A DNA stretch of 63,362 nucleotides, filler included, from Reclinomonas americana ATCC 50394 (Eukaryota), in the NCBI GenBank assembly GCA_048213135.1. It is 6 parts of 3 records of this genome, joined end to end, with 100 filler letters (N's around TTAATTAATTAA, not from the genome) between each part and the next. Parts side by side here need not be neighbours in the genome. Positions count along the whole stretch, not along the records: positions 50,203 to 58,191 come from PS015720.1; 5 more parts are not named here. One strand, 5' to 3'. The notes beneath the pieces were generated by a model. The model had not been told where the DNA came from. It saw nothing but the letters and a program-made list of their open reading frames with translations, and searched no databases. Each line of letters begins with the position of its first letter. Position 1 is the stretch's first letter. Below, in pieces: positions 18,182 to 58,291 of the stretch. Position numbers and translations under genes: made by a program.

Positions 18182-18281
18182 NNNNNNNNNNNNNNNNNNN
18201 NNNNNNNNNNNNNNNNNNNNNNNNNTTAATTAATTAANNNNNNNNNNNNNNNNNNNNNNNNNNNNNNNNNNNNNNNNNNNN
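18182..18281. other. Artificial scaffold linker (N44-TTAATTAATTAA-N44)
   Basis: All-frame stop 12-mer at 18226-18237 embedded in Ns. The identical structure occurs five times in the window. Confidence 0.97.
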
Positions 18282-19825: not shown

Positions 19826-20900
19826 CTACCTCGGTGGCAGCTTGTGCACGAGACGAAGCCGTGCGGATCTGGCCGACGGATTCTCCGCCACCTCTGCATC
19901 ACGCGGTCTCTTCACCGGCAACACTTTGAAGGCGCCTTCGCTGTTGCTTTCGCGACAAACGTCGCACACGGTGCGATCCTCCAGCGAGTGGTACGTGACG
20001 ACAGCCAGCACACCGCCGGGAGCGAGGCATTCAAGAGCAGCCCGCGTGCCACGCTGCAGCTCGCCGAGCTCGTCGTTGACGTACATGCGCAGCGCCTGAA
20101 AGGTCCGCGTGGCCACATGCCGTCCGGTCTGCTGCGCACTGCGCGGCACCGCCACGCTCACCGCCTGTACGAGCTCCTGGGTGGTACGTAGCCGTCCATC
20201 CGGTGCCGCCTCTCGCGCCGTCACAATACTCCGAGCAATCGGCCAGGCGAACTTCTCCTCGCCCAGCTGTACATGGCGAGTGTGAGCGATTCACCTGCAG
20301 CTGTCTCACAAACGCGCGACTGCACACCTCACGAATGATGCGTGCCAGTTGCGCCGTGTCCAACGAGTTGACCACATCAGCCGCCGTGGCCTCGGCATCC
20401 GGTCCCATGCGCATATCGAGCGGTCCATCGCGCTCCCGCATGAACGAGAATCCGCGCTCCGCGTGCACCAGCTGCTGCGTGCTGACGCCCAGATCAAACA
20501 CCACAGCATCCACACTGCCGATGCCGACGCATCCTCGTGAGCACAAGACCTCGTACACAAAGACAGCGAGCGGGAGAGAGACGACGCACGTGTTTGGGGC
20601 ACAATGCGCGGCCAGACGACTGAACCGATCGTGCACGAGGCGGAAGCGATGGGCGCCAAACTCGGCCTCCACTGCCGCCCGCGCCACTTGCACCTCGGCA
20701 CTCCACGAGTCGCGATCAATGGCCAGCACCGATGCCTGCACCGACGCTGTCGACTGCAGCAGAGCGCGCGTGTATCCGCCACAGCCAAACGTGCAGTCGA
20801 CGATCAACGCTGCTCGGGGGTGGAAGTGGTGTTGACCGCTGCCTGTTACATAGCGCGACACAACAGAGACGACTTCGCCAAGAAGCACGGGGACGTGCAT
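19826..20900 (-). CDS. METTL15: rRNA small-subunit m4C methyltransferase (RsmH/MraW, METTL15 family)
   Basis: Motifs HVPVLLGEV, VDCTFGCGGYT, FDLGVSTQQL, RGFSF...DGPLDMRM, HVATRTFQALRMYVNDEL, YHSLEDR and ENPSARSARLR. May start at the upstream in-frame ATG at 21089. Confidence 0.93.
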
Positions 20901-20965
20901 GAATGAGACGGAGGCCGACGGACGACGGAGACAGACTCGCGCTCGTGACTGTCTGCTTTTTTGTG

Positions 20966-23900
20966 ATGGACGAGAGCGCCAGTGCGCTCGCCGCACACGC
21001 GGTGATGCACTTCCGGCAGCGCGACTATGTGCACGCGTTGGAGGCACTGCGGCGACTTGCGCGCGCCACCAGCACCACACTCTCCTCATCCTCCACGACA
21101 ACAACAACAACAACAAGTACGACAACAACAGGAACAGTGGCTTCTGCTGCTGCTGCTGCTGCTGCGCCAGTGTCGTCGAATGGTGCCAGTGGAGGGCAGT
21201 CGGCGGCAACGACTGCGGCGGCGGCGGCGGCGGCGGCGGCTGCGCGCGAGAGTGATCGCGTGGCGGGGGTCGACACCAAGATCGTGCACAATGCCGCTGG
21301 TTAGTGTCTCAGTGTGTGTCTATGAGAAACACACGCGCGCTCTCTCTTCTCTTCTCTATTCACTCACACGCGTGATTGATTGGATTCGCACACCAGTGTG
21401 CGAGTTCTATCGCGACGGGTGTCAGGAGACGAGCAAGTTGCTGACCAAGTTGCAGAAGCTCGTGGGGCGCACCTACAAGCGAGGTGTGTGTGTACATGTT
21501 GTCGCTCTGGCTTTGCTGTTTCTCTTGTTGTTGTTGTTGTTGTTGATTTGACCACGCAGAAACCGAGGGCATGTACGATGATCCGGAGCTGAGTGTGTTG
21601 CTGTACAACCTGGCGTGTCTGTACATGCAGCTCAAGCAGTACGCGGAGGCGGCGGCGGTGCTGGAGGCGCTGTTTCGGGCGACGCCGGGGGCGCTGAATG
21701 AGAGCATTCTGTTGCGGGTCGGTGCGCTGCTGCTTGACATGCTGCTGACCATGGCGGAGAATGTGTCGTGGTTTCGTGTGGCGGCGCTCTGCCGTCGTGT
21801 CCAACCGCTGCTCGATGCGCTGGAGAGCAGTGCGGCGACGTTGGATGTGGAGGTGTGTACTGTCATCCATTCGAGTCATGCGCTCCCTCACTCACACGAT
21901 CGCTCAGTCCAACTCGAGATCGAGTGCCGCTGCTCGGAACGGTGTGTTGAGCTGCCCTGCTGCCTCTCTCTCTCTCTTTGTGCTCTTTATGCTCACTATC
22001 GTCGGGGCTCGCCAGCGACTGCTGTCCGTGCCGTGTCGCCCACGCTGTCGACAGTCGCCTTTTCTGGCCCCGAATTGCGCTTCCTGCTGCACATGTGCCG
22101 CGCGCGGCTCCAGCTGCTGATGCGCGACGCGGCATCGGCGCGTGGTGAGCTGCAGCTGGCCAGCGGGCAACTCGGTGCACCATCGGATCCGTTGCATGCG
22201 CTGCACCGACACGCCACCGTGCTGCTGTCGGCACATGTGGAGTTTGTCAGCGGCAATCCACGCAATGCCCTCGCCATTCTCGCGCCTAACGGCTCACCGC
22301 TGTTGTCACCGCCAAGCGCGCTGCCGCCCTCCGATGTCGCTGGTGAGCGCCTTTCAACATGCCCCACGTGTCACAGCTGCTCATGCGTTGCGCTCCACAA
22401 CAGATGCCAATGCCTCGACGGCCTTGTCGGTCGTCTACCTCAATAATATTGGCTGCGTGCACTATGCGATGCGTGGTCCGCGCTCGGCTGCGCATTTCTT
22501 CCGCCAGGCACTCGAGCACTGGGACCGTCACGTGCATGGTACGCTGACAGTCGTTGGTGGCGGTCGGTCGGTCATCCTGCGTCATCCTCTGCTCACAACA
22601 TGGGCATTCACACGCACAGCCGGTGCCAGTATGGCCGTGGTCTCGTCGTTTACCCGCGACCGCAAATGTGAAATCATGTACAATTATGGCCTGCAGCTCT
22701 TGCTAATCGGCAAGGCACATGAGGTTGGTTTTTTTAGATTTCTCGTGGCGCAAGTGGATTGGTTCTGACAGGTGTGCTCGGCGCAGGCTTTCGAATGCTT
22801 GCAATTTTCTTCTCTGTTGCTCGGGAGGAGACCACGACTGTGGTTGAGATTAGCTGAATGCTGCATTGCGTTGCATGCAGCCAAGGTCAGAACATTCTCC
22901 CCTGCATTTCTCAGTTCCCTCTCTCCGTGTGCTCACACGGGTGTTGCAGGCCGAGGGGCAACGATCATCCAGGTCCGGCAAACTGTGGACCACGACCTTG
23001 TCTGTGCGAGGTCACGTCGCGCATTGCCTTCCACCGGCGTCTGTGGTGTCGGATGGCATTGTTGCGGACTCGGAGCCGCTGGTCGACGAGAGTGCACGCC
23101 CCGTGGTATTCAGGTGCGATCCTCTTCCATGCCACTCTTTTTGTTGTGGAGCTTCGTCACGAAACCCCTGGTTCGTCTGCAGAGCACGTGACGGCGCGGT
23201 GTTGAGCTTGCCGAAACCGTCCCTCGAATACGCCGCCTCGTGTCTGCAGACGTGCCTGGCACTGATCACGAGTCTCGAACAACAGCAGCAATACGTTTCG
23301 TAAGCTCGCTGTGGGTGGGCGTTGCTGCTGTTGCTGATTGTTCTGTTTGTTTAGGATCCGGAGACGGCGGCGAGTGTCGCCTCTGCCGCTGCGCTCGAGT
23401 CGCAGGAGCTTGCATTGGTGCAGACAGCATGTCTGCTGCGCTTGGTGTACATTGCCCTGTGTCAGCACGATCCGTCGGTGGCACTCGCACTGTGTCGTCG
23501 ACTGGTGGCCTCACCGCCCCCGGATGTCGACTCGAGGTGCTGTAAGCATGTGTTTCTTATTGGGCGCGCCAGTGATCGCTCACTCTTCTCGCGCAGAATA
23601 CTGGTGCATCTGTATGCCGCCGAAGCCCTTCTCATGCTTGAACAAGTCGATGCCGCACTGGGACTTTTGTATCCACTCCCGGAAGTTGCGTGTGCCTCGA
23701 AACGTGTGCACTCGCCGTGTGTCGTGCTCATCGGTTGTGGTTGCAGGCATTCGCTGCCGTGGTGCCGGCGGCCGCCGACGAGACATCACTCACCGTACGA
23801 CTGGCCACGTATTGCAATCTGGCCGCCGCATTCACAGAAAAGGTGTGTCAGCAATGCAGCAGATTCCACTGCGTCGACAGTCGCTCACGCTCCACAGGGA

Positions 23901-27209: not shown

Positions 27210-27309
27210 NNNNNNNNNNNNNNNNNNNNNNNNNNNNNNNNNNNNNNNNNNNNTTAATTAATTAANNNNNNNNNNNNNNNNNNNNNNNNNNNNNNNNNNN
27301 NNNNNNNNN
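27210..27309. other. Artificial scaffold linker
   Basis: TTAATTAATTAA at 27254-27265 within Ns. Confidence 0.97.
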
Positions 27310-38061: not shown

Positions 38062-38161
38062 NNNNNNNNNNNNNNNNNNNNNNNNNNNNNNNNNNNNNNN
38101 NNNNNTTAATTAATTAANNNNNNNNNNNNNNNNNNNNNNNNNNNNNNNNNNNNNNNNNNNN
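38062..38161. other. Artificial scaffold linker
   Basis: TTAATTAATTAA at 38106-38117 within Ns. Confidence 0.97.
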
Positions 38162-50102: not shown

Positions 50103-50202
50103 NNNNNNNNNNNNNNNNNNNNNNNNNNNNNNNNNNNNNNNNNNNNTTAATTAATTAANNNNNNNNNNNNNNNNNNNNNNNNNNNNNNNNNNNNNNNNNN
50201 NN
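50103..50202. other. Artificial scaffold linker
   Basis: TTAATTAATTAA at 50147-50158 within Ns. Confidence 0.97.
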
Positions 50203-50754
50203 TCGCCAGGTTGCGGATGGGTCGGCTGCTGCGGTGTGACGACGCTGATGACGACAGAGACGAGGAGGACGACGATGGCGAGGGTGACATTCGCGATCGC
50301 GATCCATTCGACGGTGATGACGATGGCGGCTGCGATTGCGAATGGGTCGCGAAGGGTGAGAGGCGTGACCATCACACACACGCATACAGAGAGGGTGAGG
50401 AAGGATGAGAGCATTCGCATGCGCTTTGCGTACCGATCGACGACGCGATGACATGGCGCGAAATCGAATCGAGTTGGGACACCTTCGTTTCTCTCGACGG
50501 TGATCGATGGAAAACGCACACCCAGTGCAGCACCCAGTGATCGAGGATGGTGCTATCGAGTGGGTGAGATCGCAGCAGCAACAGCGCCTGCTACGTTTTG
50601 AGACGGAGCTTGAGGGGACGAAGCGCCAGGGACAACACGCAGATTGCTCGCTGCGACGTTCTCGTCGTACCTTATGGAACCATTCCCACTCCCCTCGGTT
50701 ACCACTACTCGGCACGCTTTACATTTGTTGTTTTCTCTCTTCTCTCTCATTTCC

Positions 50755-53700
50755 TTAGAAGCTCGTGCCGCTGACGCGCACAACATACACATTGTTTGCG
50801 CTGTCGGCGGCAGCAGACTGCACGCGAACATCGCCTTGCACCGCGGCGAGCCACTGAGCGCCGACAGAGTTGCTGACGTGGAAAACAATAAGCGAGATGG
50901 GATCGGCGCAGAGGGGCGACACGTTCTGTGGACCGAGGCCGACGATGGCCTTCTGCATGGCGGCGCGCAGGTCACTCTCCATCGACAAGATGTCCGCCAG
51001 CGTGAGGCGGTTGCCAGAGGCGTCGAATGTGGCGGCGCGGAACACGTCGATCACGCTGTCTCCGGCAGTCGGGTACAGCGCCTTCTGAGCGTCGACATTG
51101 GTGTCGATGCAGGCCACATCGACGCACGAGCCAAGCAGCGCCAGGTACATCAACTGCGCCTGTTCGGCTGGGGTGCGCGCGGTGATGACAATGGTGGCCG
51201 ATGCGCGACCGGCGACACGCAGCGCGTCCTTCACGACGTCAATGGCCGCACCGGAATTGGACGAGAAGACCAGCGGGTTGGCAGCCGGGCCGTAGACGAT
51301 GGAGACGTCGGAGAGAGCTCGTCGGTTGCTCAGGGTGCCGCATGATGCAGCCGTCAGCTCGACCGTCAAGTTGGGCTGCTGGCGGAGGAGGTTGGCGTCG
51401 GTGAACGTGAATACAGAGGTCGTGGAGACTGGCGCCGAGAACGACGCAATCGAGCTGGCGAGCGGATCGCGCAGCGTGCTGTAGAACACCTGGACGGGAA
51501 TCAGAGAGCCAGCAGGGTACTGGCTGTTGCTGGTCGCCGCCACCGTCAGACTGAAGCCTCCGAGAGCATTGTTCCAGCTGAAAGCACTCACAGTCGCCGG
51601 GCAGTTGACCTCCTCGATAAAGTCAATATCCACCCACGAATCGTACAGCCCGTCACCGACATTGGCCACCCCGACGTCGAGTTGCACCACGTCATTGGCC
51701 AGCACCGGCAGCTCCAGCGTCTTCCATCCCGTGTAACCCGCAATGAATCCACCGACAATCGTCACCGAGAACGCCGTCGGCCCCAGTCCGTTCATGCTGG
51801 TCGCATCGACCACCTCCTGGCCCGACAGCGACGAACGCAGGAGCACACGGTAGTAGTCGTTGAAGCGGGATCCGAGGAAAGCCGGGTACTCGTGGGTCGT
51901 GAAACGGTAACGCACTTGCACCGACTTGGTGCCTGCAGCGACTTGGAACGTGCGCGAGAGCGTGTGCTCGCCCTCGACCGGGGCCGTCATCAGCTGAATG
52001 TCAAAGTTGGTGATGGCGCTCACTACACGCGGCGTGAAGGTGCTCGTGCTGGGTGCTTGCGGTTCGGGGCGCTCACGGGGCCGCCGGGGTTGGTCGCTGC
52101 TGCCACTGCTGGCGCTGCCGGTGTTGCCGCTACCGATCGGCGGATACGTCTCCAAGTGGCCACTCACATTCACCGGCGTTGAAGAGACCCAGCCCGACGA
52201 GTCGCCCGTCGACAGATCGTTGTTGGCAACCGTGCTCGGCATCGCAAAGCCCGACATCAGAATCGTCACGGAATCTTTCGGCACGCCGCCGTAGAAACCG
52301 GTAATGGTCTTGTCCGACGCGGCCGTGGCCCGAATGCCGATGGTGGTGGTCGGGATGTTGTCCACCGACAACACACCCTCGTTGGTGGTGAAGGGGCCAG
52401 CAGACACGCCATCCGCATCCAGCAGCTCGACCGTGACAACCACCGGACTCGTAAACAGGGCGCCGGACTCCAGGTCGGTCACCAGGCGAATCTCCATCGT
52501 GCGGTCACCGGCCCACACTGTCACGGTGTGCGTCACTGGGCGACTGAACGAATCCAGCTGGTTGAAGACGAAGCGGTTCTTTCCGGCCACCAGCGCCGTC
52601 AAAAACTGGGACTCGGTCTCCGATTGCGAATCGGGGAAGGCAAATGAGTTGATGGCCGACGCATTCGACACTTTGGTGCCGTAGTTGAGGAGTGAGTAGC
52701 CGCCAGCGGGGCGAGCGGCGGGGACGGCAAACTTGCCGCCTGACGCCAAAAAGCGAAGCGGCGTGTCCACAGAGTAGAATGTGGGAGCGTCGACATTGGT
52801 GGTGATGGTCAGCAGCGCTGGAGGGACATCGGCAGGGTTGACGCGTGCGTCTACCGCAGCCACACACGAGGCGAGGTCCACGCATTGGTTGTTGGAAGAG
52901 TAGACACTGCAGATAGGAGGGTAAGTAATAAGAGTCAGTGACTTTCTTTGCAGGCCGTGCGAGCAGAGACGAGCGGACTCACTTCGGGAAGTTCTTGCAC
53001 TTGTTCGTGTCGGGGCGGCAGGAGCAGACGCGGCCACCGATGAGTGCATTGCTGCAAGTGCACTGGCGTGTGCTCTTGTTGCAGGTACCTGCGGTGGTCG
53101 TGCACGGTTAGACGGCGAAAGGAGGGGTGAAAAACACCGCCTCCATAAAAACCATACGGGTATCCGCAGTCGGCATTGGTGCGGCACACCTCGCCGTTGG
53201 ACTCGTCCAGCGGACGAGCGGCCGCCGGCAGCGTGCCGTTCTCAGTGTACGCCACGCACTCGCTCAGATCCGTGCAGAGGCCGGCAGTGGCATACACGTC
53301 GGGGAAGAGCGCGCAGTTGAGGTTGGCCACCGCGTTGGGCCGGCACTGGCAGAACTTGCCACCAATCAACGAGTTGCCGCACTGGCAGTTCCTGTGGTGC
53401 GCGAGGGTGAGGAAAGAGAAGAGAAGAAGAGGGAAAGAGAGTGAGTGCAGCGTACCCATTGACGCATGCACCCCACGGGCTGTTGCATTGCGCATTCGAG
53501 GTGCACGTTGGTGGGGGTGGAGGTGGCTGCGGAGTGTCGACGGCCGCAATGCAGGTCGGCAGGTCGACACACGATCCACTGGCACTGAGGTAGACCGCGG
53601 GGAACGAGCGGCACTTGTTGGTTGAATCTGGGCGGCAGGCGCACGTCGCACCTCCAATAAGCGCATTGCCGCACACGCAGGCGCCGTTCACACAGGTCCC

Positions 53701-53949
53701 TGCGTGTGAGTGTGAGTGAGTATGAGAGAGAGAGAGAGAAGAGCAGAGAGAGCTCAGCGTGTGATCAAACCATTCGGGGCATTGCACTGCGCATTGCTTG
53801 TGCACGGAGCTCCGGACGCCGCTGCGCACACAAGGTAAGTTCACTCACACACACACACGCAATGAGCGCCAGCAGCGAGATCACACGCAACAGTGCACGA
53901 TGCCTATTGCGGAAACCAGCAGCAGGAGGACGACGACAGCGAACTTCAT
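50755..53949 (-). CDS. Secreted mosaic protein: three Cys-rich repeats, a choice-of-anchor-L-like domain and a degenerate M15-peptidase-like domain
   Basis: Signal peptide MKFAVVVLLLLVSAIGIVHS, repeats CxxNAxC...NALIGG.xCxCRP, YRFTTHEYPAFLGSRFNDYY, VANVGDGLYDSWVDID and ITARTPAEQAQLMY. The last exon (50755-52906) has no intron. Confidence 0.8.
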
Positions 53950-54278
53950 CGTTATTAGTTGCAAGTCGTGGGTGGTTCGCTCTCGCAGGCGAACAGTGAG
54001 GGAGAAATATGAAAGGAGAAGGGAACCGCTGCGGTCGCTGGTTGTTCCGCCTGCGTCCGCTCTTTGTTGCGATCGGAGAAATGCATATGTGCTGTATCTT
54101 TTTATCGGATGCGCAGCAAAAGCACTGGCTTGAGCCGGCAACTCCCTTGTGTTGTCCTCTACCACTGCAATTCTCGGTGTCCACCTCTCGTGAATGCAAG
54201 AGTGTGAGTGGTTGTCTGTCGGAAATGGTGTGAAGTTGCTGGCCGTCCTGTGCAGTTTCTCTTGCAAGACGACCAAGA

Positions 54279-55383
54279 ATGAGCGCGGCTGCCAGTGAAC
54301 CTCCTCCCCGACGCCGTCGCATCCTCCTGCTGCGGCACGGCGAGCGCGAAGACGCGGTAAACCCTGAATGGAAAGCCACAGCCGAGTTCCCAGGTCACTC
54401 ACTGCCAACTCCGCTCTCTCTCTCTGCATCACTCACACTTCCCTGTCACACAGACGACCCACCGCTGACTCTGCGTGGCGAGGAGGCCAGTGGCGAGGCC
54501 GCACTGGACGTGCTGGACTACTTGGAGAGCACGAGCAGCGAGGTGCTGCGCATTGTCTCCAGTCCACTGCTGCGCACGCGACAGACCACCATGCGCGTGG
54601 TGCACATGTTGCGACAGCAGCTGGAGGCAGCTGCCACTGGCACTGGAGGCAGGAAAGCACGCTTGCAAATACACTGTCATGTGGCGCGTGGAGTGTGCGA
54701 GTGGCTGCGCCCGCACTGGTACCCGCGGGGTGACCCGTTTGAGCGACTCAACCCGGCCACTCCTGAGACAGAGGTCTATTCACGTGGATGCATTCTTCGT
54801 TGTTCATTGCGCCGCTGGCTGAAAGGTGATGGAAAGCACAGTATGGCATCGAGTGGGAGCCTCTGGAGGATCGGGTTGACTCGTTGGCCAACGTGCATCG
54901 CTTTCCCGAGACGCTGGCGGCCGAGTTTTATGCACGGACGGCGTTGACAGTGCGGACGCTGGTGGAGGCGTATCCGGGTACGCAGTGTGCGATGATCGTG
55001 GGGTTCGTGCTTCTTCTTATACACCCTTGTGGCAGATGACAACTTGCTGTTTATCACGCACGGAGCATGCTTGGATGGCCTGGCGCATGGCTTGGTGTCG
55101 AGTTGTGTGCGCGCACACGAGAGAAGGAAGATGATGATTGTACTCATTCCATCCCCGCTGCAGATCTGGTGCCGGCACACTTGTACTGGGGACCGTTGCG
55201 TTGCATGTCGATCGTCGACCTGTGCTCATGTCGCCCAGTCACTCACCGCCGCACGAACACAGCTACAATGCCATTGCGGTCATTGACTTTGACGGGGAGC
55301 AGCATACGCTTACGCACCCCGAGGAGCCGTTCGTGCGGACCTTGATGCCGCACGAGAAGGAGAAGCCGAACCCGTGGAAGTGA
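54279..55383 (+). CDS. Histidine phosphatase (phosphoglycerate mutase superfamily)
   Basis: Motifs LLRHGERED, DPPLT, SSPLLRTRQT, GVCEW and LFITHG. Confidence 0.9.
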
Positions 55384-55723
55384 CCATGTCGTTTGCGTCT
55401 GCTTGTTGATGCACCTTGCATAGAAGTACATCGCCCCTCTGCACGTCATCGAAGTCTCACACACGCACTGATACATTTCACGACTCATCATCACTTTTCT
55501 TTCGATCTGTCAACAACATTTCTTACAGGCATTGGATTGCGGGAGATCCAGAGCCACGCACGCGTCACCGACGCGGCTTCACAGCGCAAGATACTCTCTC
55601 GCACTGCGGCTCCCCTTATGATCACCTACTCTGGAACTACGTACAGACACATACACATACACAAACACAAACTCTCTCCATCTACCACCACCATCACACT
55701 ATTTTTTCTCGTCACCCTCGGCA

Positions 55724-57862
55724 TCACGGCTCCCAGTGGCGATCGTCAACGGAGCTCTCCAGAGTCATGCGACCGAGTTCCTTGTGGAGCGCCCCGAGCG
55801 ATCGTGGACCGAGTTCACTGCACAATCGCAGGATGGCGCTGACAATGTTGACGTCGCGCGACTCGCACTTGACCACGCGCTCTTCCGTGTCGGCCGAATC
55901 CATGTTGTGGTAGTACTCGCGATCCAGTGACATGTGCTGCGCCCGCCGGGAGGCCGCCGACGGTGACGAGAGCGATGCTGAAGGGGAGGAGGAGAGGGGT
56001 ACTCGGGCACCGGCGCCCGAGCCGCCGCCGTAGGCCGACACAATCGCCGCAATTGGTGCTGGCGGCACGGGTGGCGACGGCGGCAGCGACGGATCGCGAC
56101 GGTGCTTTGATGATCTGGAGGAGGGGCTTCGGGTGCTGTGCTTGCGCGCGGTCGGCGACCGCACATGAGCCGGAGGTTGTGGGATGGAGGCCAGCGGAGG
56201 TGGCGAAGGGGTGGAGGAGCGCGACGATCGTGACGAGCGCGACGAGTGTCCGAAACTGTTGTGTGTGGCATCGGGTGATATCGGCGGCGAGGTGTGCGAC
56301 TGCAAGGGAGAGAGAGAGAGAGAGAGAGNNNNNNNNNNNNNNNNNNNNNNNNNNNNNNNNNNNNNNNNNNNNNNNNNNNNNNNNNNNNNNNNNNNNNNNN
56401 NNNNNNNNNNNNNNNNNNNNNNNNNNNNNNNNNNNNNNNNNNNNNNNNNNNNNNNNNNNNNNNNNNNNNNNNNNNNNNNNNNNNNNNNNNNNNNNNNNNN
56501 NNNNNNNNNNNNNNNNNNNNNNNNNNNNNNNNNNNNNNNNNNNNNNNNNNNNNNNNNNNNNNNNNNNNNNNNNNNNNNNNNNNNNNNNNNNNNNNNNNNN
56601 NNNNNNNNNNNNNNNNNNNNNNNNNNNNNNNNNNNNNNNNNNNNNNNNNNNNNNNNNNNNNNNNNNNNNNNNNNNNNNNNNNNNNNNNNNNNNNNNNNNN
56701 NNNNNNNNNNNNNNNNNNNNNNNNNNNNNNNNNNNNNNNNNNNNNNNNNNNNNNNNNNNNNNNNNNNNNNNNNNNNNNNNNNNNNNNNNNNNNNNNNNNN
56801 NNNNNNNNNNNNNNNNNNNNNNNNNNNNNNNNNNNNNNNNNNNNNNNNNNNNNNNNNNNNNNNNNNNNNNNNNNNNNNNNNNNNNNNNNNNNNNNNNNNN
56901 NNNNNNNNNNNNNNNNNNNNNNNNNNNNNNNNNNNNNNNNNNNNNNNNNNNNNNNNNNNNNNNNNNNNNNNNNNNNNNNNNNNNNNNNNNNNNNNNNNNN
57001 NNNNNNNNNNNNNNNNNNNNNNNNNNNNNNNNNNNNNNNNNNNNNNNNNNNNNNNNNNNNNNNNNNNNNNNNNNNNNNNNNNNNNNNNNNNNNNNNNNNN
57101 NNNNNNNNNNNNNNNNNNNNNNNNNNNNNNNNNNNNNNNNNNNNNNNNNNNNNNNNNNNNNNNNNNNNNNNNNNNNNNNNNNNNNNNNNNNNNNNNNNNN
57201 NNNNNNNNNNNNNNNNNNNNNNNNNNNNNNNNNNNNNNNNNNNNNNNNNNNNNNNNNNNNNNNNNNNNNNNNNNNNNNNNNNNNNNNNNNNNNNNNNNGA
57301 GGGCACACTATATACAAGAGAGAGAGACGCACCACAAGACGCGCAGTCGCGGCAAGCTGACCAAGTGCTGCAGTTCATCCAAATCACTGATATTGTTCCT
57401 ATGGGAGGTGAAGATGTCAGATGATGATGATCATCACCACAAGCAGCGATCTACTCTCTCTCACACTCACCGACGCAAGTAGAGCTCACACAAGTTGGTG
57501 CAGGCGGAAAGCGCATGCAACGAGTGAATGTTGTTGACACTGAGACTGAGAATCTCAATGTTGCTGCACTCCTGCAGCACATCCATCTGCGGACGAAGAA
57601 AGAGAGAGAGAGAAGGGGCAAAGAGAGACAGAGAGAAGAGAGCACATCACATCACGTCACATGGTAAGTGTTCGATTCACACAGTCTGTCACGAGAAGAG
57701 AGCAGTTTGTGGGATTCACTCTCTCACCTCAGAGATGCCAACTCCCCACGCGTTGAGGCGCTTCACATCGCGCAGAGTGGACGACTTGGTGCGGTCAAGC
57801 ACCAGCTCACGCGACAGCTGCAGCCCACCACCAGCGGGCATCGGACTTGCGAGAGTCGCCAT
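55724..57862 (-). CDS. CFAP410: Cilia- and flagella-associated LRR protein CFAP410 (C21orf2)-like, spanning a gap
   Basis: LSRELVLDRTK...VKRLNAWG, ILSLSVNNIHSL and ELYLRR|NNISDLDELQHLVSLPRLRVL. C-terminal NIVSAILRLCSEL matches the family's small C-terminal domain. Confidence 0.85.
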
Positions 57863-58191
57863 GAGAGAGACAAGCCACACAAGAGAGAGAGAGCAAGTAA
57901 AAAAAGGAGTGAATCACACGAAAGGCAAGACAGACTGTGTGTAGAGCGCGAGTGTGTGGAACGTGCAAAAGGGAGACAGCAAGTCAAGCACGAGTGGTCT
58001 AAGAAGGTGTCGCGTTTCTCTCTCCACTCTCTATGAAGATCTAAGTATGTGACAATGAGAGATGACGACATTGTCTTCCTCTGTCCACTGCTTGCATTGC
58101 GATGATTGAGAGGCTGCGCAGTCGACCACTGCTGCTCGTTCTATGCACGGGCGTGGTGCTTGTGATGGTGCTGTTCATGGCCAGCTCATCG

Positions 58192-58291
58192 NNNNNNNNN
58201 NNNNNNNNNNNNNNNNNNNNNNNNNNNNNNNNNNNTTAATTAATTAANNNNNNNNNNNNNNNNNNNNNNNNNNNNNNNNNNNNNNNNNNNN
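58192..58291. other. Artificial scaffold linker
   Basis: TTAATTAATTAA at 58236-58247 within Ns. Confidence 0.97.

Follow-up and report, generated by a model that had tools for sequence, protein, structure and literature searches.

A gene on the minus strand of a 63,362-nucleotide stretch of the genome of the protist Reclinomonas americana ATCC 50394 (GenBank assembly GCA_048213135.1; the whole stretch is referred to below as the window) encodes a five-domain module of bacterial ancestry, joined in frame to host exons for a signal-peptide-like start and three cysteine-rich repeats. The head carried by the bacterial relatives of the module is lost, the reading frame of the fused gene is intact, and the loss of conserved residues in the last domain is specific to particular sites. 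Taken together, these features are best explained, with a probability of roughly 0.55, by the domestication of a bacterial module that would now act as a non-catalytic binding protein. The gene lies in the part of the window that comes from record PS015720.1 (positions 50,203 to 58,191).

Structure of the fused gene and its bacterial relatives

The longest N-free frame of the window extends from stop to stop over 828 codons of the minus strand (50755..53241), the runner-up having 425 codons. On the 5' side of the large exon contained in this frame, three frames carry pieces of a Cys-rich repeat, with short CT-rich spacers bounded by GT and AG between them, and the whole forms a consistent spliced model of six exons, all on the minus strand. 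Exon 1 (53892..53949, 58 nt) provides the start codon and a signal-peptide-like hydrophobic N-terminus (MKFAVVVLLLLVSAIGIVH...), and exon 2 (53771..53821, 51 nt), with GT..AG introns of 70 and 71 nt on either side, the start of repeat 1. Exon 3 (53456..53699, 244 nt) completes repeat 1 and, after a proline run, begins repeat 2; exon 4 (53153..53391, 239 nt) completes repeat 2 and, after a linker, begins repeat 3. The middle of repeat 3 comes from exon 5 (52983..53088, 106 nt), which ends at a consensus GTGAGT donor. The terminal exon 6 (50755..52906, 2,152 nt) follows an acceptor AG that ends at 52907, contains no interruption and comprises the tail of repeat 3, the five-domain bacterial-type module and the TAA stop codon (50755-50757). 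The other three introns measure 64, 64 and 76 nt in order, all five are of the GT..AG type, and the spliced product has 949 codons with a single, terminal stop. The least certain junction of the model is that between exons 1 and 2, where the donor (GTTGCG) is weak.

The spliced product thus consists of the hydrophobic start, three repeats of approximately 65 residues with 10 Cys each, which align well with one another (MAFFT), and the 716-residue product of the last exon. Repeat 3 is split by intron 5, and its last ~19 residues open the large exon (VYSSNNQCVDLASCVAAVD, 52849..52906, minus strand), where they line up with the corresponding ends of the other two repeats (MAFFT). Because intron 5 cuts through repeat 3, the fusion is readable from the DNA itself, and the bacterial similarity starts directly after the repeat 3 tail, at NPADVP. 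A preliminary description of this DNA had proposed an intronless 2.15-kb exon fused to small spliced Cys-rich exons; the proposed exon is exactly the last exon of the spliced model, and repeat 3 runs across intron 5 into it. The window contains 16 N runs, none of them between 50203 and 56328; therefore, the large exon lies on one uninterrupted stretch with the small exons and all five introns, and the module is physically continuous with intron-bearing host sequence.

The repeats (52983-53821, minus strand) follow the pattern C-x2-N-A-x-C ... C-x-C-x-N-x-L-I-G-G-x2-C-x-C-R-P ... F-P-x-V-Y ... C-x-D-L-x2-C. They have no Pfam match, exon 3 included, and no homologue was found among 88 word-sharing candidates; the 10-Cys repeat may represent a lineage-specific extracellular module. 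No paralogues of the gene were found within the window.

The relatives of the large exon were sought by a word-index search of 5.8 billion clusters and with a HMMER profile, built from four sequences, against 1.84 billion representatives. The word-index search yielded only three matches, with about 35-39% identity over 81-91% of the exon product, the best of them being a hypothetical protein of Micromonospora viridifaciens (E 1.4e-91, 38% identity, 91% coverage), which is also the only named one; the other two are unnamed. At E<=1e-3 the profile retrieved 2,384 representatives, of which 423 also pass E<=1e-30. Since none of the 153 proteins retrieved and aligned exceeds 37.6% identity to the Reclinomonas protein (BLASTP), these collections hold no close relative, eukaryotic or other. 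Of 56 pattern matches in contigs of bacteria and archaea sampled at one genome per species, half (28) could be confirmed as loci, every one of them in a bacterium; the phyla represented include Actinomycetota, Acidobacteriota, Planctomycetota, Pseudomonadota and Bacteroidota. In viral contigs (IMG/VR), none of 18 candidate stretches could be confirmed. Eleven of the 28 loci cover the exon product to about residue 670-711 (Micromonospora, two; Acidobacteriota, six; Gemmataceae, Henriciella and Myceligenerans), and the remaining 17 have only residues ~85-432 in common with it. Among 20 representatives looked up, one bears an informative name, ‘tandem-95 repeat protein’ from Planctomycetales; the remaining source names seen in the family are ‘hypothetical protein’ and ‘Ig-like domain (Group’. 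The bacterial appearance that had been ascribed to the exon is therefore far beyond chance, and its confirmed loci in named genomes are bacterial throughout, most relatives being unnamed and metagenomic.

The homology to the bacterial exoproteins designated here ‘type C’, after their C-terminal domain, is full-length and collinear over all five domains and, on this sequence evidence, the module as a whole is of bacterial ancestry. The bacterial proteins have a signal peptide of their own and varied heads, among them dockerin-type-I-like, He_PIG and further adhesin-type ones, whereas the Reclinomonas protein has the Cys-rich repeats instead. Nothing common was found among 30 flanking frames of eight bacterial loci; one locus has a PG_binding_1 neighbour. 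Five unnamed metagenomic homologues look eukaryotic by eye, having low-complexity Thr/Pro-rich or Lys-rich heads, an assignment that is our own guess.

A tree of 68 rows and 790 columns was obtained by an IQ-TREE quick search from the Reclinomonas protein, 49 proteins picked for reaching the C-terminal end of the family, 10 full-length named loci and 8 outgroup loci with other C-terminal domains; about 100 representatives (fragments or N-terminal-only) and 10 of the 28 loci were left out. The type C clade, which includes the Reclinomonas protein, is split from the outgroup with an SH-aLRT support of 99. Within it, the protein stands in an open polytomy with Micromonospora and Acidobacteriota groups (node support 85), and no starred set includes it. 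The distribution of the family makes transfer in the direction from bacteria to a eukaryote a well supported interpretation.

Domain architecture and residue loss in the last domain

The order of the domains in the module is Ig-like, CarboxypepD_reg-like sandwich, choice-of-anchor-L (CAL)-like, Ig-like and C-terminal alpha/beta. The last of these, the type C domain (50758..51285, minus strand; exon residues 541-716), bears substitutions at near-invariant positions. Residues were counted in an alignment of 57 sequences that reach the C-terminal end, comprising the Reclinomonas protein and 56 others chosen from the 153. Leu665 (50911..50913, minus strand) stands in a column occupied by His in 54 of the 57 sequences (motif S-R/K-H-C), His676 (50878..50880, minus strand) in a column occupied by Asp in 55, and Val708-Val709-Arg710 (50776..50784, minus strand) at the position of the family motif H-[LIF]-E, with His in 55 and Glu in 44. 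The substitutions are thus H665L, D676H, H708V and E710R, so that H, D, H and E, almost invariant in the family, give way to L, H, V and R. In the bacterial relatives, the H-x10-D pair and the distal His are candidate zinc ligands, all of which are replaced in Reclinomonas. The loss of zinc ligands had been anticipated in the preliminary description, and SPLC, VFHV and VYVV are indeed found where 54, 55 and 55 sequences have H, D and H; all the motifs quoted there (YRFTTHEYPAFLGSRFNDYY, VANVGDGLYDSWVDID, ITARTPAEQAQLMY, SPLC, VFHV and NNVYVV) are present in the translation.

When only columns with 90% or more conservation in the other sequences are counted, the Reclinomonas protein keeps 1/1 in the first Ig-like domain, 10/10 in the CarboxypepD_reg-like domain, 37/40 in the CAL-like domain, where all three changed columns are glycines, 8/10 in the second Ig-like domain and 14/21 in the last domain; the three upstream domains together retain 48/51, against 14/21 in the last one. 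When the mean identity of the protein to nine named bacterial proteins is divided by the identity between bacterial clades, the ratios for the five domains in order are 0.81, 1.02, 0.93, 0.59 and 0.76, and the CAL-like domain is the best conserved, with a mean identity to bacteria of 45%. To judge from these comparisons, the upstream binding-type domains have been preserved to the same degree as among bacteria and the C-terminal half is more diverged, the residues lost being precisely the candidate metal or catalytic positions. Such a concentrated loss, in a frame of 949 codons that is still intact, speaks against mere decay.

An unnamed metagenomic homologue of 779 residues (P0039), the head of which is Thr/Pro-rich and eukaryotic-looking by eye, has independently lost all three candidate ligands, with S-R-Y, N and F-Y-L in place of S-R-H, D and Y-H-L. 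Catalytic loss in the type C family may therefore be recurrent.

The case for a peptidase ancestry of the type C domain is weak and indirect, though its several lines agree. Among 12 scanned relatives with the same upstream domains, three end in a Peptidase_M74 domain above the Pfam cut-off (L016, L011 and L020; 30.1, 27.3 and 26.4 bits) and three more in one below it. Further relatives end in a second type of domain, which has the motif S-R-H-x6-D ... P-H-W and no Pfam match. When type C is compared with this second type by hhalign (E 0.0094), the T-x-R-x-P-x-x-Q-A, S-x-H and D blocks are aligned, type C containing an insertion of four residues. When 181 C-terminal tails, from 153 proteins and 28 loci, were sorted crudely by motif, 36 fell into an M74-like type, 12 into the second type and 61 into type C, leaving 72 unsorted, which are fragments, T9SS tails and variants. 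Across the relatives L009-L028 and P0054-P0154, the cassette of Ig-like, CarboxypepD_reg-like and CAL-like domains is joined to at least three types of C-terminal domain, and some of the proteins have T9SS tails; the bacterial relatives look like a modular family of uncharacterised exoproteins. In an unnamed metagenomic protein of 893 residues (P0050), an intact type C domain is followed by a Phage_lysozyme domain (23.8 bits, cut-off 22.3), and in another of 1289 residues (P0046) it is followed by an extra tail that is chitinase- or GH19-like by eye, with no Pfam match.

DD-peptidases, L-Ala-D-Glu peptidases, VanXY and the Hedgehog N-domain have one common fold. AlphaFold models covering the C-terminal part of the exon product are confident (pLDDT 95.7 and 92.6, the latter for the type C domain), and the type C model contains a long helical insert (model residues ~58-123). 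With the C-domain as query, seven entries of the above fold are among the best 50 rows of VIA-align, namely 1lbu, a Streptomyces Zn DD-peptidase (row values 5.9, 3.0 and 79), the L-Ala-D-Glu peptidases of phages T5 (8p3a; 5.0, 3.3 and 101) and RB49 (23ri; 4.6, 4.2 and 81), VanXYg (4muq; 4.5, 4.2 and 103) and three Hedgehog entries (4.7-4.9); unrelated two-layer sandwiches reach equal values, and these peptidase-type rows fall below the noise guide of the tool. A second structural alignment had no DD-peptidase or Hedgehog-type entry in the best 50 of 956 aligned chains. In the ESM Atlas, the Micromonospora C-domain has VanY/M15_4 clusters as its only named neighbours (at a low score of 0.81), a lead only. 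On balance, the last domain is somewhat more likely than not to be related to the LAS peptidases.

The four domains upstream are likewise on the minus strand. The first, putatively beta-rich and Ig-like domain (52606..52848; exon residues 20-100) aligns to bacterial homologues, in which weak Big_13 and tandem-95 matches lie over it, and the following CarboxypepD_reg/DUF7382-like beta-sandwich (52261..52605; residues 101-215) corresponds to Pfam matches in bacterial homologues. The CAL-like domain (51610..52260; residues 216-432) is followed by an Ig-like or FnIII-like beta-sandwich (51286..51609; residues 433-540). The resemblance to choice-of-anchor L that had been noticed earlier is recovered by the profile NF038133, which matches 51631-51951 (residues 319-425) with 27.0 bits, exactly at its cut-off of 27 (E 2.7e-6), over part of the profile (positions 88-212 of 219). 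For the two nearest bacterial proteins, the scores are under the cut-off (13.7 and 18.9 bits); matches at E<=0.01 are given by 15 of the 57 family members scanned. The link to choice-of-anchor L thus appears real but distant and borderline; the phrase itself was not found in the literature searched.

Proposed origin, alternative explanations and genomic context

In the scenario that we favour, a complete bacterial gene for an extracellular multi-domain protein would have been acquired by a eukaryote through horizontal transfer, would subsequently have lost its bacterial signal peptide and dockerin-like head, and would have been joined in frame to host exons for the signal peptide and the three 10-Cys repeats. 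The last domain of the bacterial protein would be a metal-dependent LAS/M15-like cell-wall peptidase, aimed at its substrate by the upstream binding domains, and the eukaryotic copy would be a secreted pseudo-enzyme, able to bind the ancestral ligand (bacterial envelope or peptidoglycan) but no longer to cleave it. Such a pseudo-enzyme may be a recognition or adhesion factor, for example in the sensing of prey or microbes. The putative role in binding peptidoglycan or a bacterial surface is put forward tentatively, the odds being somewhat against it. In its most far-reaching form, which we consider rather doubtful, the proposal is that the protist has domesticated a five-domain cell-wall-targeting exoprotein, its metal site disabled, on a Cys-rich stalk of its own, as an opsonin, a pattern-recognition receptor for bacteria that is secreted or sits at the surface, and that the bacterial family combines one targeting cassette with three interchangeable LAS-type heads (M74-like, M15-like and type C). 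If true, such a receptor would offer, independently and in a protist, a parallel to what animals have made of PGRP amidases and of the Hedgehog/DD-peptidase fold, namely non-catalytic proteins of recognition or signalling.

Several results weigh against this scenario. No Pfam, NCBIfam or PDB-sequence match links the last domain to any peptidase: HMMs of Peptidase_M15*, VanY and Peptidase_M74 matched neither the Reclinomonas protein and its 56 type C relatives (E<=0.1) nor isolated C-domains (E<=1), and PDB profile searches with the domain returned only ubiquitin and designed-protein noise. At the level of structure, Foldseek found nothing in the PDB at E<=0.001 for the C-domain alone, fold searches with a 284-residue model matched only its Ig-like half, a search of BFVD gave a single unnamed viral protein of 174 residues (E 1.8e-4, TM 0.54), which is uninformative, and ESM Atlas contained no usable match to the Reclinomonas C-domain. 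The hhalign probabilities are 1% for type C against M74-like tails and 4.4% against the second type, and the H-to-D spacing is 10 residues in type C and 6 in M15. The M15-like domain postulated in the preliminary description agrees with the order of motifs and with the position of the M74 domains in sister architectures; it has neither an HMM match nor a Foldseek match in the PDB at E<=0.001. Concerning the origin of the module, the Reclinomonas protein falls inside the type C clade; however, its terminal branch is long (1.95, against a median of 0.74) and ends in a polytomy, and no donor lineage is singled out. Given the eukaryotic-looking metagenomic homologues, which do not group with the Reclinomonas protein in the tree, the transfer may also have proceeded via another eukaryote.

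The alternative that survives best accepts the same transfer and fusion and assumes an extracellular adhesion or matrix protein with no link to peptidoglycan, in which the CAL-like and beta-sandwich region does the work and the last domain either never was a peptidase or is now a structural cap. It agrees with the CAL-like domain being the best conserved part of the module, with the adhesin-type heads of the bacterial homologues and with a last domain the peptidase membership of which is unproven by sequence and fold searches; moreover, eukaryotes have reportedly recruited other choice-of-anchor domains from bacteria, such as those of the diatom Trailins, as far as the accessible part of that report describes them (10.1101/2023.03.06.531300). 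We nonetheless regard this alternative as unlikely: bona fide M74 peptidase domains occupy the same position in sister architectures, a lysozyme domain has been added in one homologue, and the near-invariant H/D/H/E of the bacterial domain resembles a catalytic or metal site rather than a cap.

That the gene is a decaying relic, in which the fusion is real, selection has ceased and the lost residues mark early decay, would fit the long branch but is improbable, as the 949-codon frame is uninterrupted, the splice sites of all five introns are intact, the conserved columns are largely kept upstream and to two-thirds even in the last domain, the AlphaFold models are confident, and the changes are clustered at the candidate active site instead of being evenly spread. 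Finally, an assembly artefact, with contaminating bacterial DNA joined to eukaryotic DNA by an assembler or scaffolder, might be suspected from the 16 N runs, one pair of which lies ~550 nt downstream of the stop codon (50103-50202), and from an intronless exon with bacterial best matches, but is highly improbable in view of the gap-free 50203-56328 interval, the in-frame passage of repeat 3 from exons 4 and 5 into the large exon, the identity of at most 38% to any bacterium among about 15 billion proteins, the absence of the bacterial signal peptide and head, and a third-codon-position GC content (GC3) of the large exon (0.79) close to that of four host frames and exon 3 (0.64-0.77).

As regards the eukaryotic nature of the DNA, uDENN/DENN, mRNA-capping-enzyme, LCAT and TPR domains are carried by other frames of the window. 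On the opposite strand, a neighbouring frame (54234-54947, plus strand) has a weak His_Phos_1 match under the cut-off (E 9.9e-4); it begins ~285 nt upstream of the start codon of the gene, and in view of this spacing the two may share a divergent promoter region. A 425-codon frame at 20031-21308 (minus strand) contains an MraW/RsmH methyltransferase domain (118.8 bits). Its best matches are 35-45% identical and mostly unnamed, the named ones all being alphaproteobacterial RsmH, and no closer eukaryotic protein was found in the collection searched; it is probably a gene for a mitochondrial-type rRNA methyltransferase. Ten of the N runs form five pairs of 44-N runs set 12 bases apart (18182-18281, 27210-27309, 38062-38161, 50103-50202 and 58192-58291), a regularity that looks like the signature of a scaffolder and not biology; the others are five long runs of 645-970 nt and one of 20 nt. 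No Rfam matches and, with ARAGORN, no tRNAs were found in the window.

Comparison with known systems

The closest relatives of the module are the bacterial type C exoproteins, which include GA0074695_3587 of Micromonospora viridifaciens (P0002) and proteins of Acidobacteriota, Gemmataceae, Henriciella and Myceligenerans and are collinear with exon residues ~20-716 at 30-39% identity. All the motifs of the CAL-like domain and the T-A-R-T-P-x-x-Q-A motif of the last domain are shared with them. They differ in having their own signal peptide and head and no Cys-rich repeats and in keeping the four residues replaced in Reclinomonas (H, D, H and E). All of these proteins are uncharacterised. The type C domain resembles the clan MD or LAS peptidases (M15, VanX/VanY, phage L-Ala-D-Glu peptidases, M74 MepA and the Hedgehog N-domain) in the order of its motifs and sits where sister architectures have M74, but differs from them in the lack of an HMM match, the long helical insert and the H-to-D spacing of 10, and the Reclinomonas copy lacks all three candidate ligands.

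With the choice-of-anchor L proteins (NF038133), the Reclinomonas protein shares a profile match at the cut-off. Choice-of-anchor domains are paired with C-terminal surface-anchor or sorting signals, according to the accessible part of the report on diatom Trailins, in which a choice-of-anchor-A domain has been recruited from bacteria for adhesion (10.1101/2023.03.06.531300); other reports seem to indicate similar recruitment for Acanthamoeba cyst-wall lectins and msp130. The Reclinomonas protein, in contrast, ends in ...VRVSGTSF and, by eye, has neither a hydrophobic tail nor a sorting or anchor signal (PEP-CTERM, LPXTG or T9SS).

The nearest published parallel, by architecture alone, is rusticalin, which together with rusticalin-like proteins is known from ascidians, amphioxus, corals and placozoans. 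It is described, in the accessible portion of its report, as a secreted protein with N-terminal Cys-rich repeats and a C-terminal, horizontally acquired domain of the clan MD peptidoglycan-peptidase type; the protein of S. rustica reportedly lacks part of the active site and has been suggested to be non-enzymatic (PMC6339383). Rusticalin differs, as far as that portion goes, in having one small, Pfam-recognised L-Ala-D-Glu peptidase domain with sites conserved in most members, whereas the Reclinomonas protein has a five-domain module of ~700 residues with a last domain of no named family.

Eukaryotic takeovers of bacterial envelope-active proteins are few, and they are instructive with regard to the origin of innate recognition. 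In the PGRPs, an enzyme has turned into a receptor after the loss of catalytic residues. The tick Dae2 is a domesticated bacterial cell-wall enzyme that is reportedly still active, as stated in the accessible part of its description (10.1101/2020.04.10.036376). The Reclinomonas protein would resemble both in that a eukaryote has retained a bacterial gene directed at the envelope to cope with bacteria, but Dae2 and the PGRPs belong to other folds and families. In the present gene, the DNA alone reveals where host and bacterial parts meet, the stalk contributed by the host and the residues specifically lost, and this would make it a clean example of the passage from enzyme to binder after transfer. 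It also exposes a sizeable bacterial family, the 2,384 representatives retrieved with its profile, in which the last domain has no Pfam model and the swapping of C-terminal peptidase-like domains suggests a common substrate-targeting cassette. From the known cases the present one departs in three respects: a larger module has been captured, its last domain belongs to a family without a name, and the conserved residues have been lost cleanly.

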